In this document: piece by piece, positions 25,750-46,152 of the stretch
How positions within the stretch are numbered: position 1 is the first letter of the stretch
Layout: every line of letters starts with the position of its first letter
From: Mytilus trossulus
Taxonomy: Eukaryota
Direction: 5' to 3'
NCBI RefSeq assembly: GCF_036588685.1
Contig: NC_086377.1
Coordinates: 45,942,001 to 46,006,000, forward strand
DNA length: 64,000 bases
The notes under the pieces: generated by a model
Databases searched by the model: none
What the model was told of the DNA's origin: nothing
Seen by the model: the letters and a program-made list of their open reading frames with translations, nothing else
Translations under genes and position numbers: made by a program

Positions 25750-25820
25750 TGCATCGGCCGGGAATCGAACCCGGGCCGCCCGCGTGGCAGGCGAGCATTC
25801 TACCACTGAACCACCGATGC
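25750..25820 (-). tRNA. tRNA-Gly(GCC)
   Basis: Copy of 167-237. Confidence 0.96.
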
Positions 25821-26491
25821 TTATGACTACCTCATGTTAAACTTGATCATATAAGGACACATGTTACCTGATATGTATGGTATAAATGCATGTTAATATG
25901 ATACTGAAATTGTCGGTAGAAACACGTACGGCACAAATACATTTGAAAAGAGGAAATCGGCGATAATTTAGATCTCATTTGTTCAGCTGCAGCATATCAT
26001 TGAATATCAACTGGCGGTTGAAATATAATGACCAGAAAAAACGCTACTGTCGGCTTCGTGTATAATTTAAAACTTAAATATAAGCTTATACCTGCGTAGT
26101 TAAAAAAAAATCGTGATCTTAAAGGGATAACTAACCTCAAGTCTTTCAAAGAAGACCTAATCGCAAAACGAAAAGTTCTGTAATTTGACATGATTTCTGT
26201 TGTGGTTTCCATGACAGACAACTTGAACTCGGTAAAGTCGACATATGGTACATGCTAATTTTCATACTCCATGTAATTATAAGCTAAATGCATAACTTCG
26301 CCCTTTACCAATTGTACGTTTCTGCATCTAATATTTACCGACTGGTCTAGTTTTGTAAGCTTTGAATACTCTCCTGTGACAGTCATGCTGTCAGCTAAAT
26401 CACAGTTATCATATGTTGACACAATCATAAATGTATTAGGCTGGGTAAGGACTCTTTTATATATAGCTTAAATTAAGCTAGTTCTACTAAG

Positions 26492-26550
26492 TCCGGTTAG
26501 GATTTCTGGTTTTCACCCAGACGGCCCGGGTTCGATTCCCGGCATCGGAG
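26492..26550 (+). pseudogene. tRNA-Glu(TTC) pseudogene, 13-bp deletion
   Basis: TCCG[ATGTGGTCTAGTG]GTTAGG deleted: removes most of the A box, the 5' D stem and part of the acceptor stem. Confidence 0.92.
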
Positions 26551-27206
26551 CTTTAATTTTTTGTGATTGGAGGAAACAAATGTCAAAAGTCACGAAAACG
26601 ATATGCAGGATTCACATACTCCTCAGAGCGAACAAATTGCAATTGTTCCTCGCAACGTATGTTATCTTGCAGTTTGCATCTGCCGCTGTTTTGTGCCTTA
26701 ACATGATTAGGTCTTTAAATGGCACTGACTGAAATGAGATGGGTAACCATCACACCTGCAAAAGAATGTACTTTAGCAAATAATGACTTTATGTTTAAGA
26801 GTCATGTTTATGTTTTATGCATTTCTTGTCATTTAGTCAGTTGTTATGACATTATCCCCTCGGGATATTAGTTAGATACGATCACGTAATTCCTGTGTTT
26901 GCCACTCTCTCTACGATTCCCCTCAATTGCTAAAAATGGTAGCACCGGAGCCATTCACTCCTGGCACTCTTATAAAGGGCGTTCTCGACAATTTATTTGT
27001 ATCTTATTCAAGATTGACCTCTACGTAAAAAGAGGAAAGGCGTTGTATTTGAAAGGATGTCATCAAATGAATTTGTCATCAAATGAATTTGTTTTTACGT
27101 GAATTACCAGCAATGCCCATTATATATCCGTGGATGATACGATTATGTGTCGCGAATTCCACTGTCCTCTAATCAATTGAAAACCTTGAAAGAGTCAAAA
27201 AAGAAA

Positions 27207-27277
27207 TGCATCGGCCGGGAATCGAACCCGGGCCGCCCGCGTGGCAGGCGAGCATTCTACCACTGAACCACCGATGC
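27207..27277 (-). tRNA. tRNA-Gly(GCC)
   Basis: Copy of 167-237. Confidence 0.96.
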
Positions 27278-27948
27278 TTATGACTACCTCATGTTAAACT
27301 TGATCATATAAGGACACATGTTACCTGATATGTATGGTATAAATGCATGTTAATATGATACTGAAATTGTCGGTAGAAACACGTACGGCACAAATACATT
27401 TGAAAAGAGGAAATCGGCGATAATTTAGATCTCATTTGTTCAGCTGCAGCATATCATTGAATATCAACTGGCGGTTGAAATATAATGACCAGAAAAAACG
27501 CTACTGTCGGCTTCGTGTATAATTTAAAACTTAAATATAAGCTTATACCTGCGTAGTTAAAAAAAAATCGTGATCTTAAAGGGATAACTAACCTCAAGTC
27601 TTTCAAAGAAGACCTAATCGCAAAACGAAAAGTTCTGTAATTTGACATGATTTCTGTTGTGGTTTCCATGACAGACAACTTGAACTCGGTAAAGTCGACA
27701 TATGGTACATGCTAATTTTCATACTCCATGTAATTATAAGCTAAATGCATAACTTCGCCCTTTACCAATTGTACGTTTCTGCATCTAATATTTACCGACT
27801 GGTCTAGTTTTGTAAGCTTTGAATACTCTCCTGTGACAGTCATGCTGTCAGCTAAATCACAGTTATCATATGTTGACACAATCATAAATGTATTAGGCTG
27901 GGTAAGGACTCTTTTATATATAGCTTAAATTAAGCTAGTTCTACTAAG

Positions 27949-28007
27949 TCCGGTTAGGATTTCTGGTTTTCACCCAGACGGCCCGGGTTCGATTCCCGGC
28001 ATCGGAG
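27949..28007 (+). pseudogene. tRNA-Glu(TTC) pseudogene, 13-bp deletion
   Basis: Same deletion as 26492-26550. Confidence 0.92.
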
Positions 28008-28663
28008 CTTTAATTTTTTGTGATTGGAGGAAACAAATGTCAAAAGTCACGAAAACGATATGCAGGATTCACATACTCCTCAGAGCGAACAAATTGCAAT
28101 TGTTCCTCGCAACGTATGTTATCTTGCAGTTTGCATCTGCCGCTGTTTTGTGCCTTAACATGATTAGGTCTTTAAATGGCACTGACTGAAATGAGATGGG
28201 TAACCATCACACCTGCAAAAGAATGTACTTTAGCAAATAATGACTTTATGTTTAAGAGTCATGTTTATGTTTTATGCATTTCTTGTCATTTAGTCAGTTG
28301 TTATGACATTATCCCCTCGGGATATTAGTTAGATACGATCACGTAATTCCTGTGTTTGCCACTCTCTCTACGATTCCCCTCAATTGCTAAAAATGGTAGC
28401 ACCGGAGCCATTCACTCCTGGCACTCTTATAAAGGGCGTTCTCGACAATTTATTTGTATCTTATTCAAGATTGACCTCTACGTAAAAAGAGGAAAGGCGT
28501 TGTATTTGAAAGGATGTCATCAAATGAATTTGTCATCAAATGAATTTGTTTTTACGTGAATTACCAGCAATGCCCATTATATATCCGTGGATGATACGAT
28601 TATGTGTCGCGAATTCCACTGTCCTCTAATCAATTGAAAACCTTGAAAGAGTCAAAAAAGAAA

Positions 28664-28734
28664 TGCATCGGCCGGGAATCGAACCCGGGCCGCCCGCGTG
28701 GCAGGCGAGCATTCTACCACTGAACCACCGATGC
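28664..28734 (-). tRNA. tRNA-Gly(GCC)
   Basis: Copy of 167-237. Confidence 0.96.
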
Positions 28735-36085: not shown

Positions 36086-36683
36086 TTATGACTACCTCAT
36101 GTTAAACTTGATCATATAAGGACACATGTTACCTGATATGTATGGTATAAATGCATGTTAATATGATACTGAAATTGTCGGTAGAAACACGTACGGCACA
36201 AATACATTTGAAAAGAGGAAATCGGCGATAATTTAGATCTCATTTGTTCAGCTGCAGCATATCATTGAATATCAACTGGCGGTTGAAATATAATGACCAG
36301 AAAAAACGCTACTGTCGGCTTCGTGTATAATTTAAAACTTAAATATAAGCTTATACCTGCGTAGTTAAAAAAAAATCGTGATCTTAAAGGGATAACTAAC
36401 CTCAAGTCTTTCAAAGAAGACCTAATCGCAAAACGAAAAGTTCTGTAATTTGACATGATTTCTGTTGTGGTTTCCATGACAGACAACTTGAACTCGGTAA
36501 AGTCGACATATGGTACATGCTAATTTTCATACTCCATGTAATTATAAGCTAAATGCATAACTTCGCCCTTTACCAATTGTACGTTTCTGCATCTAATATT
36601 TACCGACTGGTCTAGTTTTGTAAGCTTTGAATACTCTCCTGTGACAGTCATGCTGTCAGCTAAATCACAGTTATCATATCACA

Positions 36684-38207
36684 TGTAGTAGGTGGTTTTC
36701 TATGCGTTAATAACACCAACAATGAGATCTAAGGTTCTGATGATTTATTTACCAGTATATAAAACAAGTCTGAAATAGCAATACAACATATATAAATAAC
36801 AAGCTATTTCTTATAACATAATATATATACTTTTACGAATATCACAGGTTATATAGTACAGGAATACAATTAATAATACATTTAACTGTTAATTACTAAT
36901 TAGCAAGTAAAATGTATTGCAAGTAGAAAATATTCATTGTTTACTTTTACTGAAATTGACATCGGGTGTCACGTGTACTTTTACAAATGTTTGACCTTTA
37001 ACTATACACTAAATCGGAATGTCATACGTAATTTATGTGTATCTGTGTATTTGTATTCAATACTGGTTTACCTTACAAACGGTATGTAATAAATGTTACA
37101 ACTACATTTATTAATAATGACTTCATTAAAATATATAACACGTATAATAATTAACTATATAATATCATACAACAATCATAAAGTCGCAAATATAATAATC
37201 ATAAAGACTTATGATGTCAATATTATCGATTCATTAAAAAGCTCCAAACTAACGGGAGATAACTCATGTTTACAATACAATATAAACAAAGCTTAACTAT
37301 AAATAAATATACTCTTACCACTTGTGGAGTGAGTTGTGCTGATACGGTTAACGGCACATCATATAAACATCACACAATCATGTGTTTTACATAATTACGT
37401 TACATGGATTCCTGAAACCAAAATACGAACATAAATACTCGGAATCGAATTATAAAAATATACAATGTACTAAATATTCTTTACTCATTCATATTTGTAC
37501 TTGATAAAAACTATTTACTACAAAACTATTACTTTATATAAATGGAAACACTTTTCCGTCTTTTACTTAATAAGCCGTCATTTATAAAATATAGACTATT
37601 CATGACAATAATCAAATAGTAATGTACGCAAATTAACAATACAATTCTACCGTGGCAAATAAACCGTAGATTATAAAATCATATACTTCTAGCTTAATAA
37701 AATACTATCATGTACATCTTGTGTACTTGTGTTACATACATGCGATATGAGGAGAACGTTACAAAACAAAATAGAAACTTTACTAGAATATCATTTACGT
37801 GAAAAATATGAATAATGTTAATAAAGAAGTAACTTACAGTATTCTATAATAATGTTGTCCAAAATATATAAGGTTTACAGGTAAACTATGTGGTCAAGAT
37901 AAACAGACATAAATTCAATGAACTGTCATGGCTATCGTCCGTGGAAATGTACAGGTACAAAACAAAGGAAATTAAACTTGACCGCGAAATATAAACAGCC
38001 AATCAGATACAATGATTTAAGTAAATCCCTAATGAATATTCATAAAATAACGTGAATATTACTATACATAAAAATAAGGTTTGCAAGTAATAATTTAAAC
38101 TGAATATACAATATTCAAAATATGTAATTAAGCTTTTTAATAAATATAGTAATTAAATAGATGATTTTTACAATATATAAAATTATCATAAAAATCACTC
38201 TGCTACA
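36684..38207 (-). repeat. 3' LTR (1524 bp)
   Basis: Matches 44553-46076 except two substitutions I could see (37139/45008 and 37912/45781); adjacent to the PPT. Confidence 0.95.
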
Positions 38208-38218
38208 TTCTCCCCGCT
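38208..38218 (-). promoter_or_regulatory. Polypurine tract
   Basis: Minus strand AGCGGGGAGAA immediately before the TG of the 3' LTR. Confidence 0.85.
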
Positions 38219-38290: not shown

Positions 38291-41200
38291 TTAACCAGTT
38301 CGCATGATGTCGAGGATGGTTCTTGACAACTCCATCTCTAAGCCTTTAAATCTTCCTTTTCTTGCTTCAGACTCCAACCAGTGAATCCTCATTAACCAAT
38401 CGGGCTGTTGGATAGTAGTAGCCTGCTTAGATAAAACATAGTCATCCAGGTATTTCGGTGGTTTCCTTTCTCTCTGAGGTCTAGTTGCTACTGGTGGGTC
38501 TCGTGGTGGTGTCGGTAGTATACGTCTCCTTCGTGGTTGTTGTTCCGGAGCTATGGTGGGTTCCTCTGCCTCTACTAGTGACAAGTCTGTTGGCGCACTC
38601 TCATCTTGATCAATAGAAGTGTTTTCTTCAATAGTCTGAGCAGTCGCTTCTTCAGGTTCCTCATCACTCACAGGGTTTGGTTCTGCAGCTGTAATAATGT
38701 CCACAGGAAGAGCGTCCCCTCCTAAACCAGTTCCCTGCTGATCATTACTCTCAGCTCCATCATGGCCGTCACCAGTGAAACCAAGAGTTCCTTCTTCTTG
38801 TAGGTCCACAACTGGTACATCACTGTTAGTGTTGTCCTGTGTATCCTTATCAAGTATCCAATATCCATACTCCTGCTCCGACTCCTCATCTGATACTTCA
38901 TCAGTGGTCCTGTTCTCACTGTTCCCTTCAGATTTCGTCGGTTCCTCGGGCTGCTTATTTCTTCTTTGTTGCCTGGGCGCAGGACGTTTCTTTTCTTTAT
39001 CAATATCTTTGGGCAGATCTCCAATAGGCAAGAACAGATTTCTATGCAAAGTCCTCTTTCTTCCTTCCTTGTTTTCTTTCTGAACCACGTACACTGGTAT
39101 TCCACAATTAGGCTGACTAATTATACGATACGGGTCATCTTCCCACCTATCTGCTAACTTGTGCTTTCCATCAAAGGCTAGTGTCTTAACTAAGACTCTA
39201 TCTCCAGGCTTCAGCACAGCTCCTTTTACTTTCTGATCGTAGTGTGTCTTTTGTCGTTTCTGGGCAGCAAAGATGTTTCTTGTTGCTGTGTCATATGCCT
39301 TACGAAGTCTTTCTTGCATTTCTTCTGCATACTTAGTTGTAGTAATAGGTTCAGCTTCATCTCCGATTCCAAAAGCGATGTCGATAGGTAGCTTTGGTTG
39401 TCTTCCGAACATCAGGAAGTATGGAGAGAATCCCGTTGATGTTTGACGAGTGCAATTGTAAGCATGGACAAGACCAGCAACATGCGACTTCCAATCTTTC
39501 TTCTGGACGTTCTCTAATGTTCCAAGCATACCAAGTAATGTTCTGTTGAATCTTTCAGTGACGCCATTTCCCATTGGATGATACGGTGTTGTTCTTGACT
39601 TAGTCATACCAGTGATGTTGCATAGTTCCTTGATGATTTTGGATCCGAAGTTGGCACCTTGATCGGAGTGAATTCTTTCTGGCAAACCATAGTGGACGAC
39701 AAAGTTGTTAAAGAATGCGTCTGCAGTTGTTTTCGCTGTCTGGTTTCTTGTTGGTATTGCCAATGCATATCGAGTGAAGTGGTCTGTTATTACAAGTATG
39801 TTCTCAAATCCACCTGTAGATCTTTCAAGTGAGAGATAGTCCATACATACTAACTCCAGTGGTTGTGTTGTCTCGATACTAATGAGTGGTGCTCTATGAC
39901 TTGCAGGTTGCTTTCGTCGAATACATCTGTCGCAATTCGATATCCAGTTGTCAACATCTCTATTCATTCCAAACCAAACAAAACGATCTCTAACCAATGA
40001 TACTGTTTTGTCTCTGCCTTGATGTCCCATCTCATCATGTAATGATGTAAGTACTTTGGAAATGCAGACTTCAGGTAGTACAAGTTGTTTATGTTGTTCC
40101 CCATTGTCGTGGATAATACGGTAGAGTACACCATCAACCATTTTCAATTTGTCGTAGTTGTTTATAAACCAAGTGTTCCATGGTGAACGTTCTAACTGTT
40201 CTTTTCGTGGCTTTCGATGTTCATCAACCCAATATATCCAATCTTTAAGGTAAGTATCTTGCTTCTGTTCCATCTTGATGTTGACTAGATGTTGTGATGG
40301 TAAGTATGGATCATCAGTGGCTTTAGATGCTGTCATCGATAACGTCTGAACATATGGTTGTGCATGCTGTAACTGACAAATGGCTTTCACAGAATCTGTA
40401 CTAATGTTGGAGGTGTTGGTACGACCAAGTAGTTCTGGAAGTCTGGAAAGTGCATCTGCATCAGCGTTGTTAGCACCAGGTCGATAGACGATGTTAAAGT
40501 TGTAAGATGACAAACTAGCTATCCAACGATGACCAGTGGCGTCTAGCTTTGCTGTTGTTAAAACGTAGGTAAGTGGGTTGTTGTCTGTAACCACGGTAAA
40601 TGTGTTGCCATAAAGGTAATCATGAAATTTCTCTGTTACTGACCATTTCAGAGCAAGGAATTCTAACTTGTGGACTGGATAGTTCCTCTCAGTCTTGCTA
40701 AGTCCTCTGCTGGCATAAGCTATGGCTCTTTTCTTTCCTTCTTGTGATTGGTACAGTATTGCTCCAAGACCAAGCATAGATGCGTCTGTATGTAATTCAA
40801 AAGGTTCCTTATAACGTGGATAACCAAGAACAGGTGGCATTGCAAGTTGACTTTTGAGCTTTTGGAAGGCATCTTCTTGTGGCTTGTCCCAAACCCATGA
40901 TGTAACTGTTGGCTTCTTAAGTTTTCGTTTACTGGACTTCTTTGGTGCAGGCATCAAGTCTGTGAGCGGTCTTGCTATCTTAGAGAAGTCTTTGACAAAC
41001 TTGCGGTAATAACCGACGAAACCAAGGAAGCGACGTACTTCTTCTGGCGTTGTGGGTCGAGGCCAGTTGATGACTTTCTCTAATTTATCTGGATCGGGTG
41101 AAATACCATCTTTAGAGACTATGTGACCGATGTACTTAACTTTGTCTTTGAAGAATGCACATTTCTTGGGCGAAAGTTTCAAGTTGTGTTCTCTTAGTCG

Positions 41201-43036
41201 TTGTAATACCATCTGTAACCTTTCAAGATGTTCTTCATACGTCTCTGAAAAGATGATCAAGTCGTCAAGGTATATAAAGCATATATCTAGGTGTAGATCT
41301 CCAAGTATCTGTTCCATGAGACGTTGGTAAGTTGCTGGACTGTTTACGAGGCCAAACGGAAGTCTGTTAAATTCATAGAAACCAAGAGGGCCGACTGTAA
41401 ATGCTGTTCTAGCCTTGTGTGTCTCTTCTACCTCTACTTGGTGATAACCACTCTTCATGTCCATGACGGTATAGTAGTTGTTTCCTCCTAATGCGTCAAG
41501 GATTTCCTCGCTTCTAGGAAGAGCATATGAGTCTTTAATTGTCAGCTGGTTCAGTTGTCTATAGTCTACACACATTCTGAGCTTGTTGTCTTTCTTTCTA
41601 ACCAATACAACATTCGATGACCAAGGCGAATGTGAACGACGAATGATCCCAGCAGTAAGAAGTTGTTGAAGGTGTGTTCTAACTTCGTCGAATAAGGCAG
41701 GTGGAATACGCCGGTGTCGTTGTTTGAATGGTGTTTCATCTATCAGTTCTATCTTATGCTGTACGGCGGTGATGTGGCCTATATCAGTATCTGATGTGCT
41801 GAATACGTCTCTGAATTGATGTAGTAATTCTCTGGCTTTATGTAGTTGATCATCACTAAGTGTGTCTGGAAATGTAGATTCATTCCATGCATCTTGTTCA
41901 TAGGTATCTGGTACATCAATGTCGGTGACTGAAACAGGTTGAAGTTCGCAAAGGATGGCATTTGGCGAAACTGTCACTGTTCTGGTAGTTACATTGCTGA
42001 TATGTACTGGTATGATGCTGTTGTTTCTATACTCATATGATACTAGTGATGGAGCTATATCTAAGTCAGATGGTATTGCTGCTCTATCAGTTGACTGTAG
42101 GAGTCCACAAACTGGATGGTATGGTAGTTCATGGTCCATGTATCCCTGTAGAATGACATCTCTGTTAGGCGGTATACGGATTGTCTTTCCTTCAGCACTC
42201 TTGATGATGGCAAGTCTGTTGCATCTCTTTTGTAATTCTTTATCTCTTAAAAGCAAACATCTAAATGTGATATACCAAGGTGTATGTAGATCTGCTGTTT
42301 GTAGAAAGCGTGATCCATATCGTTGCTTTACATCTGTCATAGCTGCTGTCAAGACGTTGGTTCCAAGTAGAAGTGGTACTAGCTGGTTGTAAGAGCTGTC
42401 TGGAACGACTAACAGTAAGCATTGTTGAGGATCTGCTGATGTAGATGTACCTGGTAATTGTAGATCTGCTGAGATGTAACCAAGGTATGGCATGTTCTGG
42501 CCATCTGCACATTCGATATGAAGTATCTGGTTGAGTGTCTGGATAGGACTGTCAGCAAGGTACTGTCGATGGAATGACTGGCTAACTGTACTAACTGTAG
42601 AACCAGTATCTAGTAGTGCTGCTGCTTGAAGTCCATTGATGACTACTGTGACTTCATTAGGGCTACCAAGTAATCCTTCTGTATCACCTGATGACTGTCG
42701 TTGTTGATACATCTTAGCTTCAGTGTTCATCTGCTGAAAGTTACAAGCTTTTCTAGTGTGATCCAGTCTAACACAGCAGGCAAAGGCATAGTGGCCTGGT
42801 TGTCCACATCTGTAGCATATAACAGGTTCTCTTGATGGTTGAGATACATAAGTCGGAGTAGGAGCAGGTTGGTATTCAGCTTCTATCTGGTCCCAGTATG
42901 GACGTTGTCTGTTGCGTCTTCGGTGACGACGACGTTTTCTGCGTGGTGGATAGTACTGTGGATCAAAGGTGTCGTTGGTATTGTAGTGTTGGTCATACAT
43001 GGCGTTGTAACATGGCTCATTCGGTTGTTCATACAT
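38291..43036 (-). CDS. pol: Gypsy polyprotein: CCHC zinc knuckle, aspartic protease, reverse transcriptase, RNase H, integrase (no evident capsid domain)
   Basis: 1581-aa open frame. Motifs: CYRCGQPGHYAFAC (CX2CX4HX4C), LLDTGS, LPFGL..YLDD, LHTDAS..LEF..TDN..DALSR, H-x4-H...CDRC, and DDE (MDY, SDQG, VTERFN). ACCATG start with an in-frame TAG just upstream. Confidence 0.96.
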   Translation of the reverse strand: MYEQPNEPCYNAMYDQHYNTNDTFDPQYYPPRRKRRRHRRRNRQRPYWDQIEAEYQPAPTPTYVSQPSREPVICYRCGQPGHYAFACCVRLDHTRKACNFQQMNTEAKMYQQRQSSGDTEGLLGSPNEVTVVINGLQAAALLDTGSTVSTVSQSFHRQYLADSPIQTLNQILHIECADGQNMPYLGYISADLQLPGTSTSADPQQCLLLVVPDSSYNQLVPLLLGTNVLTAAMTDVKQRYGSRFLQTADLHTPWYITFRCLLLRDKELQKRCNRLAIIKSAEGKTIRIPPNRDVILQGYMDHELPYHPVCGLLQSTDRAAIPSDLDIAPSLVSYEYRNNSIIPVHISNVTTRTVTVSPNAILCELQPVSVTDIDVPDTYEQDAWNESTFPDTLSDDQLHKARELLHQFRDVFSTSDTDIGHITAVQHKIELIDETPFKQRHRRIPPALFDEVRTHLQQLLTAGIIRRSHSPWSSNVVLVRKKDNKLRMCVDYRQLNQLTIKDSYALPRSEEILDALGGNNYYTVMDMKSGYHQVEVEETHKARTAFTVGPLGFYEFNRLPFGLVNSPATYQRLMEQILGDLHLDICFIYLDDLIIFSETYEEHLERLQMVLQRLREHNLKLSPKKCAFFKDKVKYIGHIVSKDGISPDPDKLEKVINWPRPTTPEEVRRFLGFVGYYRKFVKDFSKIARPLTDLMPAPKKSSKRKLKKPTVTSWVWDKPQEDAFQKLKSQLAMPPVLGYPRYKEPFELHTDASMLGLGAILYQSQEGKKRAIAYASRGLSKTERNYPVHKLEFLALKWSVTEKFHDYLYGNTFTVVTDNNPLTYVLTTAKLDATGHRWIASLSSYNFNIVYRPGANNADADALSRLPELLGRTNTSNISTDSVKAICQLQHAQPYVQTLSMTASKATDDPYLPSQHLVNIKMEQKQDTYLKDWIYWVDEHRKPRKEQLERSPWNTWFINNYDKLKMVDGVLYRIIHDNGEQHKQLVLPEVCISKVLTSLHDEMGHQGRDKTVSLVRDRFVWFGMNRDVDNWISNCDRCIRRKQPASHRAPLISIETTQPLELVCMDYLSLERSTGGFENILVITDHFTRYALAIPTRNQTAKTTADAFFNNFVVHYGLPERIHSDQGANFGSKIIKELCNITGMTKSRTTPYHPMGNGVTERFNRTLLGMLGTLENVQKKDWKSHVAGLVHAYNCTRQTSTGFSPYFLMFGRQPKLPIDIAFGIGDEAEPITTTKYAEEMQERLRKAYDTATRNIFAAQKRQKTHYDQKVKGAVLKPGDRVLVKTLAFDGKHKLADRWEDDPYRIISQPNCGIPVYVVQKENKEGRKRTLHRNLFLPIGDLPKDIDKEKKRPAPRQQRRNKQPEEPTKSEGNSENRTTDEVSDEESEQEYGYWILDKDTQDNTNSDVPVVDLQEEGTLGFTGDGHDGAESNDQQGTGLGGDALPVDIITAAEPNPVSDEEPEEATAQTIEENTSIDQDESAPTDLSLVEAEEPTIAPEQQPRRRRILPTPPRDPPVATRPQRERKPPKYLDDYVLSKQATTIQQPDWLMRIHWLESEARKGRFKGLEMELSRTILDIMRTG

Positions 43037-44215
43037 GGTAAACGGTGTAAACTAGTGTACCTATAAACATTCAATTCATTCACCCTAATTCAAGTTCAAT
43101 AATAATGCAAAATTCTAATAAGTGTCAACACCACCACACTAAATGCTAATGATCAAATGCAAATTTTTAATCAATATTAAAAAAAAAAACAATGTCTATC
43201 AACAATCTAAAAATCTAGGTACTATCTAACTCAGTGAATGTCTAATATGTAAATAATATGATAATAAATTTAATTCATATCAACTTAAGTACCAAGTCAC
43301 TATACAAAGTATATTTATAAAACGATATATGAAAACTATGTATCTAATATCAACTAGCAATGCTACACATAAAACATAATGTGTGTTATAATTGCTAAGT
43401 TCAACTGAGCATTGACCTATACCATGTGGGTTATAGTTCAATGTAAGTATAATACACTACAACTGTATACCGAAAAATAAATTTAAAATATAAAAGTGTA
43501 TGCTGTATACTATGTAGCTATGCTACTGTAATCTACAAAGTATGTTTATCACTATCAGTAATACATGTACACCATAAATGAATGCCTAAATAATATAAGT
43601 GTACATGTCCTCTGACAGACTAAGTCCAAATCCAAGTAAGCCTCGGAAAAAAAAAAATTTAATGTGTATAAATGTTTAAGTATGAAAAGGTCAAAATGAA
43701 GGACGTCAAAAAAAAAATTTAAAGTCAAAAAAGTGGATGCAAAATTTCAAAATTAAATTCGAAATGTGAAAATGTTTCAAGTGTATGCTAAGTTTCAATG
43801 TATCAAAGTGGTATACAGTATATAATGTAAATAAATAAATCCTACCTTAAACTAGAAAACTATTCCAATAATTACACTGTTCCACAAAAGTATAATTAAA
43901 TCACAATATTTCACAATGCAGAATAATACAAGTTCAGTTTTCCAAAGTGAAAAACAAAAAGTCAAGTTACTATAAGTAACATCCGGTACTATATTGTCAT
44001 CCGGTAAACTGTAAACAAACGCACGTGGACGATGATCACATGGGTCGGAATGTTAGTAAACATAAGCACGTGGTAAAGTTCATCACATGGTACCATAACG
44101 GAAGTAAACAAACACACATGGTCACTGCATACATGGACTAGAGACATCTAATGGTGGTCACTGACATCACATCTGGATCTCCACAAAAACTGGTATGTGC
44201 CATCAACCCAACGAA

Positions 44216-44227
44216 ACGTGGGCGCCA
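44216..44227 (-). promoter_or_regulatory. Primer binding site (internal, 12 nt), tRNA-Lys-like
   Basis: Minus strand TGGCGCCCACGT, 2 nt after the CA end of the partial LTR. TGGCGCCC is the start of canonical Lys PBSs. Confidence 0.85.
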
Positions 44228-44229
44228 TT

Positions 44230-44531
44230 TGTAGTAGGTGGTTTTCTATGCGTTAATAACACCAACAATGAGATCTAAGGTTCTGATGATTTATTTACCA
44301 GTATATAAAACAAGTCTGAAATAGCAATACAACATATATAAATAACAAGCTATTTCTTATAACATAATATATATACTTTTACGAATATCACAGGTTATAT
44401 AGTACAGGAATACAATTAATAATACATTTAACTGTTAATTACTAATTAGCAAGTAAAATGTATTGCAAGTAGAAAATATTCATTGTTTACTTTTACTGAA
44501 ATTGACATCGGGTGTCACGTGTACTTTTACA
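44230..44531 (-). repeat. Partial LTR copy (last 302 bp of the LTR in element orientation)
   Basis: Matches 36684-36985 and 44553-44854; contains minus-strand AATAAA at 44290-44295. Confidence 0.95.
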
Positions 44532-44532
44532 C

Positions 44533-44550
44533 GTCCCTACGTGGGCGCCA
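44533..44550 (-). other. Second PBS: 18-nt complement of a tRNA 3' end
   Basis: Plus strand GTCCCTACGTGGGCGCCA ends in CCA and fits tRNA positions 59-76. It resembles the Lys3 PBS TGGCGCCCGAACAGGGAC at both ends. Confidence 0.8.
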
Positions 44551-44552
44551 TT

Positions 44553-46076
44553 TGTAGTAGGTGGTTTTCTATGCGTTAATAACACCAACAATGAGATCTA
44601 AGGTTCTGATGATTTATTTACCAGTATATAAAACAAGTCTGAAATAGCAATACAACATATATAAATAACAAGCTATTTCTTATAACATAATATATATACT
44701 TTTACGAATATCACAGGTTATATAGTACAGGAATACAATTAATAATACATTTAACTGTTAATTACTAATTAGCAAGTAAAATGTATTGCAAGTAGAAAAT
44801 ATTCATTGTTTACTTTTACTGAAATTGACATCGGGTGTCACGTGTACTTTTACAAATGTTTGACCTTTAACTATACACTAAATCGGAATGTCATACGTAA
44901 TTTATGTGTATCTGTGTATTTGTATTCAATACTGGTTTACCTTACAAACGGTATGTAATAAATGTTACAACTACATTTATTAATAATGACTTCATTAAAA
45001 TATATAATACGTATAATAATTAACTATATAATATCATACAACAATCATAAAGTCGCAAATATAATAATCATAAAGACTTATGATGTCAATATTATCGATT
45101 CATTAAAAAGCTCCAAACTAACGGGAGATAACTCATGTTTACAATACAATATAAACAAAGCTTAACTATAAATAAATATACTCTTACCACTTGTGGAGTG
45201 AGTTGTGCTGATACGGTTAACGGCACATCATATAAACATCACACAATCATGTGTTTTACATAATTACGTTACATGGATTCCTGAAACCAAAATACGAACA
45301 TAAATACTCGGAATCGAATTATAAAAATATACAATGTACTAAATATTCTTTACTCATTCATATTTGTACTTGATAAAAACTATTTACTACAAAACTATTA
45401 CTTTATATAAATGGAAACACTTTTCCGTCTTTTACTTAATAAGCCGTCATTTATAAAATATAGACTATTCATGACAATAATCAAATAGTAATGTACGCAA
45501 ATTAACAATACAATTCTACCGTGGCAAATAAACCGTAGATTATAAAATCATATACTTCTAGCTTAATAAAATACTATCATGTACATCTTGTGTACTTGTG
45601 TTACATACATGCGATATGAGGAGAACGTTACAAAACAAAATAGAAACTTTACTAGAATATCATTTACGTGAAAAATATGAATAATGTTAATAAAGAAGTA
45701 ACTTACAGTATTCTATAATAATGTTGTCCAAAATATATAAGGTTTACAGGTAAACTATGTGGTCAAGATAAACAGACATACATTCAATGAACTGTCATGG
45801 CTATCGTCCGTGGAAATGTACAGGTACAAAACAAAGGAAATTAAACTTGACCGCGAAATATAAACAGCCAATCAGATACAATGATTTAAGTAAATCCCTA
45901 ATGAATATTCATAAAATAACGTGAATATTACTATACATAAAAATAAGGTTTGCAAGTAATAATTTAAACTGAATATACAATATTCAAAATATGTAATTAA
46001 GCTTTTTAATAAATATAGTAATTAAATAGATGATTTTTACAATATATAAAATTATCATAAAAATCACTCTGCTACA
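44553..46076 (-). repeat. 5' LTR (1524 bp)
   Basis: Direct repeat of 36684-38207; followed on the minus strand by AA + PBS. Confidence 0.95.
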
Positions 46077-46152
46077 TTGACACAATCATAAATGTATTAG
46101 GCTGGGTAAGGACTCTTTTATATATAGCTTAAATTAAGCTAGTTCTACTAAG

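Follow-up and report, generated by a model that had tools for sequence, protein, structure and literature searches.

The 64,000-nucleotide (nt) stretch of Mytilus trossulus contig NC_086377.1 analysed here (positions 45,942,001–46,006,000 of the forward strand; the window) contains on its minus strand a Ty3/Gypsy retrotransposon with long terminal repeats (LTRs) and without a capsid (CA) domain of its own. It is likely, with a probability that we put at about 0.62, that this is a recent copy of an old CA-less Gypsy family and that the family replicates in the capsid particles of an autonomous relative. The element spans 9393 nt (46076–36684), and its uninterrupted 1581-residue open reading frame (ORF; 38291–43036) encodes nucleocapsid (NC), protease (PR), reverse transcriptase (RT), RNase H (RH) and integrase (IN), in that order. 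The insertion is recent, since the two 1524-nt LTRs differ at just two sites. An earlier examination of the letters alone (the sequence-only reading) had described a recently mobile element with intact pol, and both points hold: the ORF has all of the enzyme domains and catalytic motifs.

Absence of a capsid domain

Judged from its sequence, the element lacks the CA domain that characterizes Gag in autonomous Ty3/Gypsy elements. A Pfam scan of the 1581-residue ORF found zf-CCHC, protease, RT, RNase H and integrase and no PNMA or Gag model, while PNMA was detected by the same scan in three of three CA-bearing relatives. A CA profile built from six relatives produced no match in the six frames of the window, and a tblastn search of the leader and LTR with the Gag regions of the six relatives gave a best E value of 1.3. 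The control set consisted of the 80 highest-ranking loci out of 104 confirmed in metagenomes; a CA match upstream of the protease is present in 53 of the 54 that have at least 900 nt there, at a median distance of 1017 nt (all loci with a match), and most control loci have the usual CA–NC gag in a frame that differs from that of pol. The test is therefore sensitive, CA being carried by 53 of 54 control loci, and its absence from the element is out of the ordinary.

As the sequence-only reading had counted, no more than 73 residues lie ahead of the CCHC zinc knuckle (the first knuckle Cys is residue 74). This peptide (42818–43036) is rich in Pro, Arg, Tyr and Gln (11, 11, 9 and 7 residues, respectively) and includes an Arg tract with a PYW motif (residues 32–48; 42943–42893). 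It is likely to be disordered: an AlphaFold model of residues 1–124 computed with no alignment is of low confidence (mean predicted local distance difference test score 54.5). In profile–profile comparison with Gag, the CA-less N-termini match in the knuckle region only. The knuckle itself (NC; PF00098; 42776–42817) is in the pol frame, and an in-frame TAG (43054–43052) lies six codons ahead of the ACCATG start, again as had been noted.

The leader (43037–44215) is T-rich and non-coding and has no CA remnant. From the primer-binding site (PBS) to the ATG there are 1191 nt with 30% GC and 24 ATGs, and the longest stop-free stretch in six frames measures 66 codons for the leader and 67 for the 5' LTR, in agreement with the earlier description of some 1.2 kb of AT-rich sequence and no Gag-sized ORF in leader or LTR. 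The poly-A runs mentioned in that description do exist (three of at least 8 nt) but are poly-T on the coding strand. A decayed gag in the leader or LTR is rejected, as neither the profile nor tblastn gives any trace of CA. The AT-rich leader is likewise rejected as an anomaly: of the 14 CA-bearing relatives whose PBS is visible, 13 have a leader of 0.8–3.4 kb with 27–46% GC and 13–62 upstream ATGs. An AG|G acceptor-like site at 43061/43060 could be read as a sign of splicing from an upstream exon, but this is unsupported; there is no leader joint among the 15 listed of 19 joints and no CA upstream to splice in. Large retrotransposon derivatives (LARDs) and Morgane elements are defined by the lack of an intact pol. 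With its intact 1581-residue ORF and a ratio of replacement to synonymous substitution rates (dN/dS) of 0.089, the present element is not of the LARD, Morgane or TRIM (terminal-repeat retrotransposon in miniature) type.

The CA-less form as the norm of the family

The CA-less start is shown to be the norm of the family. The N-terminus is 89–98% identical to those of Mytilus galloprovincialis gene models, ten of which, on ten contigs (some may be alleles), have the same start Met; these are eight of the nine members of the P0090 cluster together with P0091 and P0092. The sister family keeps its CA (P0105) within the same annotation set. A copy from another assembly (L002), with 96.7% nucleotide identity and an intact 1581-residue ORF, agrees with the window copy at the end of the leader, at the TAG and at the ATG. 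At least half of the words of the element occur in 14 of the 24 listed sequencing runs, and contigs of four runs (X1, X5, X6 and X14) were mapped on the element. Start codon and upstream stop are bridged by single contigs in three of these four, from three organism codes (X1, 42426–43519; X14, 42261–43166; X5, 40917–43080); X6 covers all 30 bins, with no bridge across the start among the pieces listed. Low cover of the leader in X14 (43236–43487) was not counted as a finding.

The pattern of changes between L002 and the window copy shows strong purifying selection on pol: 105 changes are synonymous and 35 are replacements, giving the dN/dS of 0.089, with synonymous-to-replacement counts of 30:0 in RT/RH, 16:3 in the protease region and 35:6 in the integrase. 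Residues 1–73 have five changes of each kind (dN/dS 0.25). The sequence-only reading had proposed a six-frame search for CA, a check of whether other copies lack it and an estimate of pol dN/dS; the search was blank, the gene models, L002 and the contigs of three organism codes all have the CA-less start, and the ratio is well below 1. Neither a CA-like or decayed gag in the leader nor a one-off deletion, the two outcomes that it had named as fatal to its proposal, was found.

Relatives and origin

A FastTree phylogeny of 132 sequences groups the window copy, L002, P0002 and P0001 with a support of 1.0 and places the Mytilus protein P0005 as their sister (0.889). In an IQ-TREE analysis of 42 sequences the CA-less group has a support of 79 and is joined with the CA-bearing P0108 and P0196 at 97. 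The CA-less subfamilies are 61–81% identical to the window copy over the protease region. Five more N-termini with an Arg-rich tract followed by PYW (P0001, P0093, P0127, P0254 and P0255), seen as protein starts only, begin 46–73 residues ahead of the knuckle; P0001 is a full ORF of 1583 residues and is 70% identical over the N-terminal query. The Arg tract has 9–11 basic residues in 12 in all six N-termini of the group. Eleven CA-bearing Gags have no more than five in the comparable stretch (PYW occurs in one of them), and four other CA-less candidates have no more than six in 12.

P0108 from M. galloprovincialis is a complete single ORF of 1845 residues with the order CA-NC-PR-RT-RH-IN and is 56% identical to the window copy over 1532 aligned residues; this CA-bearing sister family is present in M. 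galloprovincialis and M. edulis records. Modelled with AlphaFold, P0105 has the PNMA2 capsid as its first fold match (E = 3 × 10−6), followed by the dArc and Copia capsids, and on this predicted structure the domain is a true capsid. The family (P0108, P0005 and P0105, with relatives P0196 and P0176) resembles the element in its in-frame NC–PR junction and acidic integrase tail; it differs in having about 330 residues, including a PNMA-like capsid and a long helix, ahead of the knuckle, and in lacking the Arg-tract and PYW motif. Since the nearest relatives are CA-bearing single-ORF Mytilus elements, the ancestor was likely to have been a single-ORF gag-pol element. By inference only, a short helix in P0254 and P0255 may be a remnant of the post-CA helix.

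CA seems to have been lost at least twice, because a second lineage without it (L052/L078) is separate and lies far from the window's group in the tree. L052 is the sole locus without CA among the 54 controls, and L078 is 88% identical to it. This lineage (L052:1–3372) has a 2.3-kb T-rich leader, NC in the protease frame and an N-terminus of about 100 residues that is acidic and then Arg/Tyr-rich; L052 has a stop before the protease. Further full-length CA-less polyproteins, known at the protein level only, start 13–88 residues before the knuckle, each start being found on more than one contig (P0040/P0111/P0048, P0008/P0264/P0265 and P0009/P0267/P0269). A scan of IMG/VR yielded one distant locus out of 22 candidates and is uninformative. 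Two single-contig loose ends in X1, at 38436 and 38894, match the tail of P0001, which suggests that the P0001 subfamily is present in the same host. A CA-bearing relative of the frameshift type (L003:137–161) has 25 nt in common with the element where the LTR end meets the PBS; 14 of these fall in the 18-nt PBS.

Proposed mechanism and alternatives

In the proposed history, the CA half would have been lost from a single-ORF gag-pol ancestor in which NC was already in the pol frame; with NC left in frame, a downstream Met would yield a working polyprotein. Early-branching members would have retained a short helical stretch ahead of the Arg tract and later ones would have lost it. Since the polyprotein has no CA with which to co-assemble, its route into the particle would be attachment, by way of the Arg tract and the knuckle, to its own RNA. 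This RNA would serve as a scaffold for a helper Gag, which would package RNA and polyprotein together, by analogy with foamy-virus Pol. The enzymes would then act in cis on their own RNA and LTR ends, which would explain why pol is kept under selection. An autonomous relative is the likeliest source of capsid because of the precedent of Tos17 and BARE2 (see below), and kinship and a common host genus are the only grounds for naming the P0108/P0105 family as candidate helper. The sequence-only reading had proposed that capsid is obtained in trans, possibly from a gag-only partner; dependence on a helper is retained as the best reading, but no such partner has been found so far in the protein searches and contig joints, and its other suggestion, capsid-free assembly, is so far unsupported.

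Several points weigh against replication in the particles of a relative. Packaging, expression and the identity of the helper are putative, the RNA label of X5 and X14 being a guess, as are cis signals shared with the helper family. A single-ORF helper would bring its own enzymes, so that cis-action must be assumed in order to account for selection on pol. The count of six Arg-tract N-termini out of six is biased, most having been found by searching with the N-terminus of the window copy, and upstream DNA is known for one of them, the other five being protein starts. The N-termini of P0002 and P0132 are incomplete, the support of 79 for monophyly of the whole CA-less group comes partly from partial sequences, and the window copy lacks a target-site duplication and has an odd 5' duplication.

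Selection on pol would need no assumption of cis-action if the genome were split, with a gag-only partner that shares the LTR ends and PBS giving capsid and receiving enzymes in mutual dependence. Gag-only elements are described in plants, namely Sabrina_SA and WHAM in wheat (PMC9744471) and TR-GAG (PMC4350172), and shorter LTR variants (549- and 428-nt skips) occur which could flank a partner's sequence. We nevertheless regard a split genome as unlikely. A search of 1.84 billion representatives gave 132 hits, and neither these nor three word-index searches include a CA-bearing protein with the N-terminal motif of the family; no gag-only partner appears in the protein searches or contig joints, data that fall short of a whole genome. 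The only LTR-sharing derivative seen, in X1, is non-coding. The Mytilus sequences P0175 and P0176, in which a Gag-like part is joined to a polyprotein tail, were not accepted as partners; they are eukaryotic gene models and the join may be a prediction artefact. Capsid-free replication, in which the basic disordered N-terminus and knuckle would condense RNA and polyprotein into a ribonucleoprotein (RNP) where processing and reverse transcription proceed without CA, would fit the excess of basic residues in the Arg tract over CA-bearing Gags, the conservation of the protease in the L002 comparison and the recurrence of CA loss (L052/L078 and, by protein only, P0040/P0048, P0008 and P0009). It is quite unlikely, given that CA is critical for multimerization of Ty3 Gag3 (PMC4974528), that CA-bearing relatives in the same host genus put a helper at hand, that the other CA-less candidates have no comparable Arg tract and that known gag-less elements use helper particles, with no capsid-free precedent in the literature searched.

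The lost domain is PNMA-like and co-opted gag genes are widespread (PMC8321522), so capsid might come from a domesticated PNMA/Arc-like host gene and not from another element; we consider this improbable, as intact autonomous relatives such as the 1845-residue P0108 exist, and no domesticated mussel gag gene was seen, none having been looked for. A one-off deletion, an assembly artefact or a gag hidden or decayed in the leader or LTR is largely refuted and scarcely credible. The window copy is indeed structurally odd, with its duplicated LTR end and missing target-site duplication, and its location in a tandem array makes assembly hard. The same start nevertheless recurs in the ten gene models, in L002 and in contigs of three organism codes, there is no CA trace, and CA-bearing relatives normally have long AT-rich leaders. 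A broader proposal is that Gypsy elements of marine invertebrates have repeatedly shed their capsid and persist as radiating NC-PR-RT-RH-IN lineages, either as split genomes with gag-only partners or as capsid-free RNP condensates driven by the Arg tract. We hold this to be doubtful; if true, such lineages would represent an LTR-retrotransposon life cycle that is not yet described.

Comparison with known systems

Mobile elements without gag and with intact pol are already known in plants, and the general architecture is not new. The Copia elements Tos17 and RN304 of rice lack gag and have an intact pol, and for Tos17, which is more active than any other rice element, use of the Lullaby particle has been proposed, the two sharing 64% protein identity (PMC3977881), compared with 56% for the present element and its candidate helper. 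Like Tos17 and RN304, the element is active or recent and combines a clean loss of gag with intact pol, LTR, PBS and polypurine tract. Tos17 differs as a plant Copia element with no CCHC and two genomic copies, whereas the present element is an animal Gypsy element with NC and protease in frame, several subfamilies and a new basic motif. The barley Copia element BARE2 cannot make Gag, is loaded on polyribosomes and has its RNA packaged in BARE1 particles (PMC3735527). BARE2 resembles the element in deriving, as the element likely does, from single-ORF gag-pol and in being unable to make Gag, and its pol is still translated; it has lost only the gag start codon and its gag sequence is still recognizable, whereas the present element retains no trace of the CA region and is just 56% identical to its closest CA-bearing relative. 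The element shares with Tos17 and BARE2 the absence of a Gag capsid, intact enzymes and cis signals and a recent insertion.

For particle entry, two sources are pertinent. The basic region and finger of Ty3 NC bind RNA (PMC4974528), and foamy-virus Pol is packaged through a Gag–genome–Pol complex via genomic RNA (PMC7828637). The latter offers an analogy only, in that enzymes without a capsid domain enter a particle through genomic RNA; foamy viruses encode their own Gag and are an unrelated lineage. The element is not a Troyka element, these being described as having CG...CG termini and a CX2CX8–10HX4C finger (PMC12440569), compared with TG...CA and CX2CX4HX4C here.

An NC-retaining, CA-less Gypsy clade in molluscs or other animals is not described in the full-text literature searched, although Repbase, GyDB and paper supplements may hold the family uncommented. 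Such a clade does not appear in the accessible parts of a survey that names mollusc Gypsy clades (C-clade and MolGy1–16; PMC6238403), the Troyka paper (PMC12440569), the Helenus/Ajax paper (PMC10886601) or a fish survey (PMC11117352). In the fish survey, some LTR families are said to 'often lack gag' on hidden Markov model annotation; this could be either a precedent in part or a failure of detection. Use of a relative's particles by this family would carry capsid parasitism, known in plants from two Copia cases, over to animals, in a Gypsy clade that is old and diversified. It raises the questions of how enzymes without a capsid domain reach a particle and why an element that borrows its shell retains its own enzymes; the Arg-tract and PYW peptide is a concrete candidate for a particle-entry function. 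Annotation pipelines based on RT and integrase would class such elements as autonomous, and those that require Gag would drop them as broken.

Structure and surroundings of the window copy

The LTRs (5', 44553–46076; 3', 36684–38207) form a direct pair with TG...CA ends. An 18-nt PBS (44533–44550) adjoins the 5' LTR end and a polypurine tract (38208–38218) precedes the 3' LTR, as is usual in Ty3/Gypsy elements. The TGGCGCCC-type PBS, which we take to be of the tRNA-Lys class, is common to the element and 14 relatives. The aspartic protease (42347–42652) has its DTG motif at residue 143, and is followed by the reverse transcriptase (41117–41602; PF00078, E = 8 × 10−40; YLDD at residue 589), RNase H (40502–40891; PF17919/PF17917) and an integrase with H2C2 finger and core (39446–40075; PF17921 and PF00665), which lies 3' of RNase H in the Gypsy order. 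This PR-RT-RH-IN order, together with the catalytic motifs, is that of Ty3/Gypsy pol.

Downstream of the 5' LTR the 18-nt PBS is followed by one extra G and a stretch that repeats the final 302 nt of the LTR exactly (44230–44532) and by a second, 12-nt PBS at the leader start (44216–44227), to which the LTR end is joined in X5 and X14. This 323-nt duplication (44230–44552; 302 nt of LTR end together with a second PBS) is likely to be an aberrant product of the second (plus-strand) strand transfer; neither it nor the missing target-site duplication described below was noted in the sequence-only reading. The extra G might derive from a copied cap, in which case the junction would mark where the RNA starts, 302 nt short of the LTR end. 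A contig of X14 (36833–37348) runs unbroken through the LTR position that matches the duplication junction, a weak sign that the duplication is not the family norm. The 44229-to-36684 joint in X5 and X14 is uninformative on this point, because the duplicate ends like the LTR.

Comparison of the flanks (CACA and TTGA) with 26 intact array copies reveals no target-site duplication for the window copy. At the left junction five array bases are gone, their place being taken by four that come from past the right junction (36670–36683 and 46077–46090). The insertion site is a tandem array of tRNA-Gly(GCC) and tRNA-Glu(TTC) genes, with 80 tRNA genes in the window; the start of the 5' LTR lies upstream of a tRNA-Glu gene, at a distance of 76 nt, although one insertion cannot show targeting. 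The block units of the array are 1441, 1425, 1457/1470 and 1104 nt in length, and in three units near 25750–28734 no tRNA-Glu was called by ARAGORN.

The derivative in X1, found in one of the four runs, has a joint at 38292–44159 and about 155 nt of non-coding internal sequence, of which some 70 nt follow the PBS and 85 nt precede the 3' LTR. Of the shorter LTR variants, one skips 549 nt (36769–37319) in X6, X5 and X14 and the other 428 nt (37408–37837) in X1 and X14.

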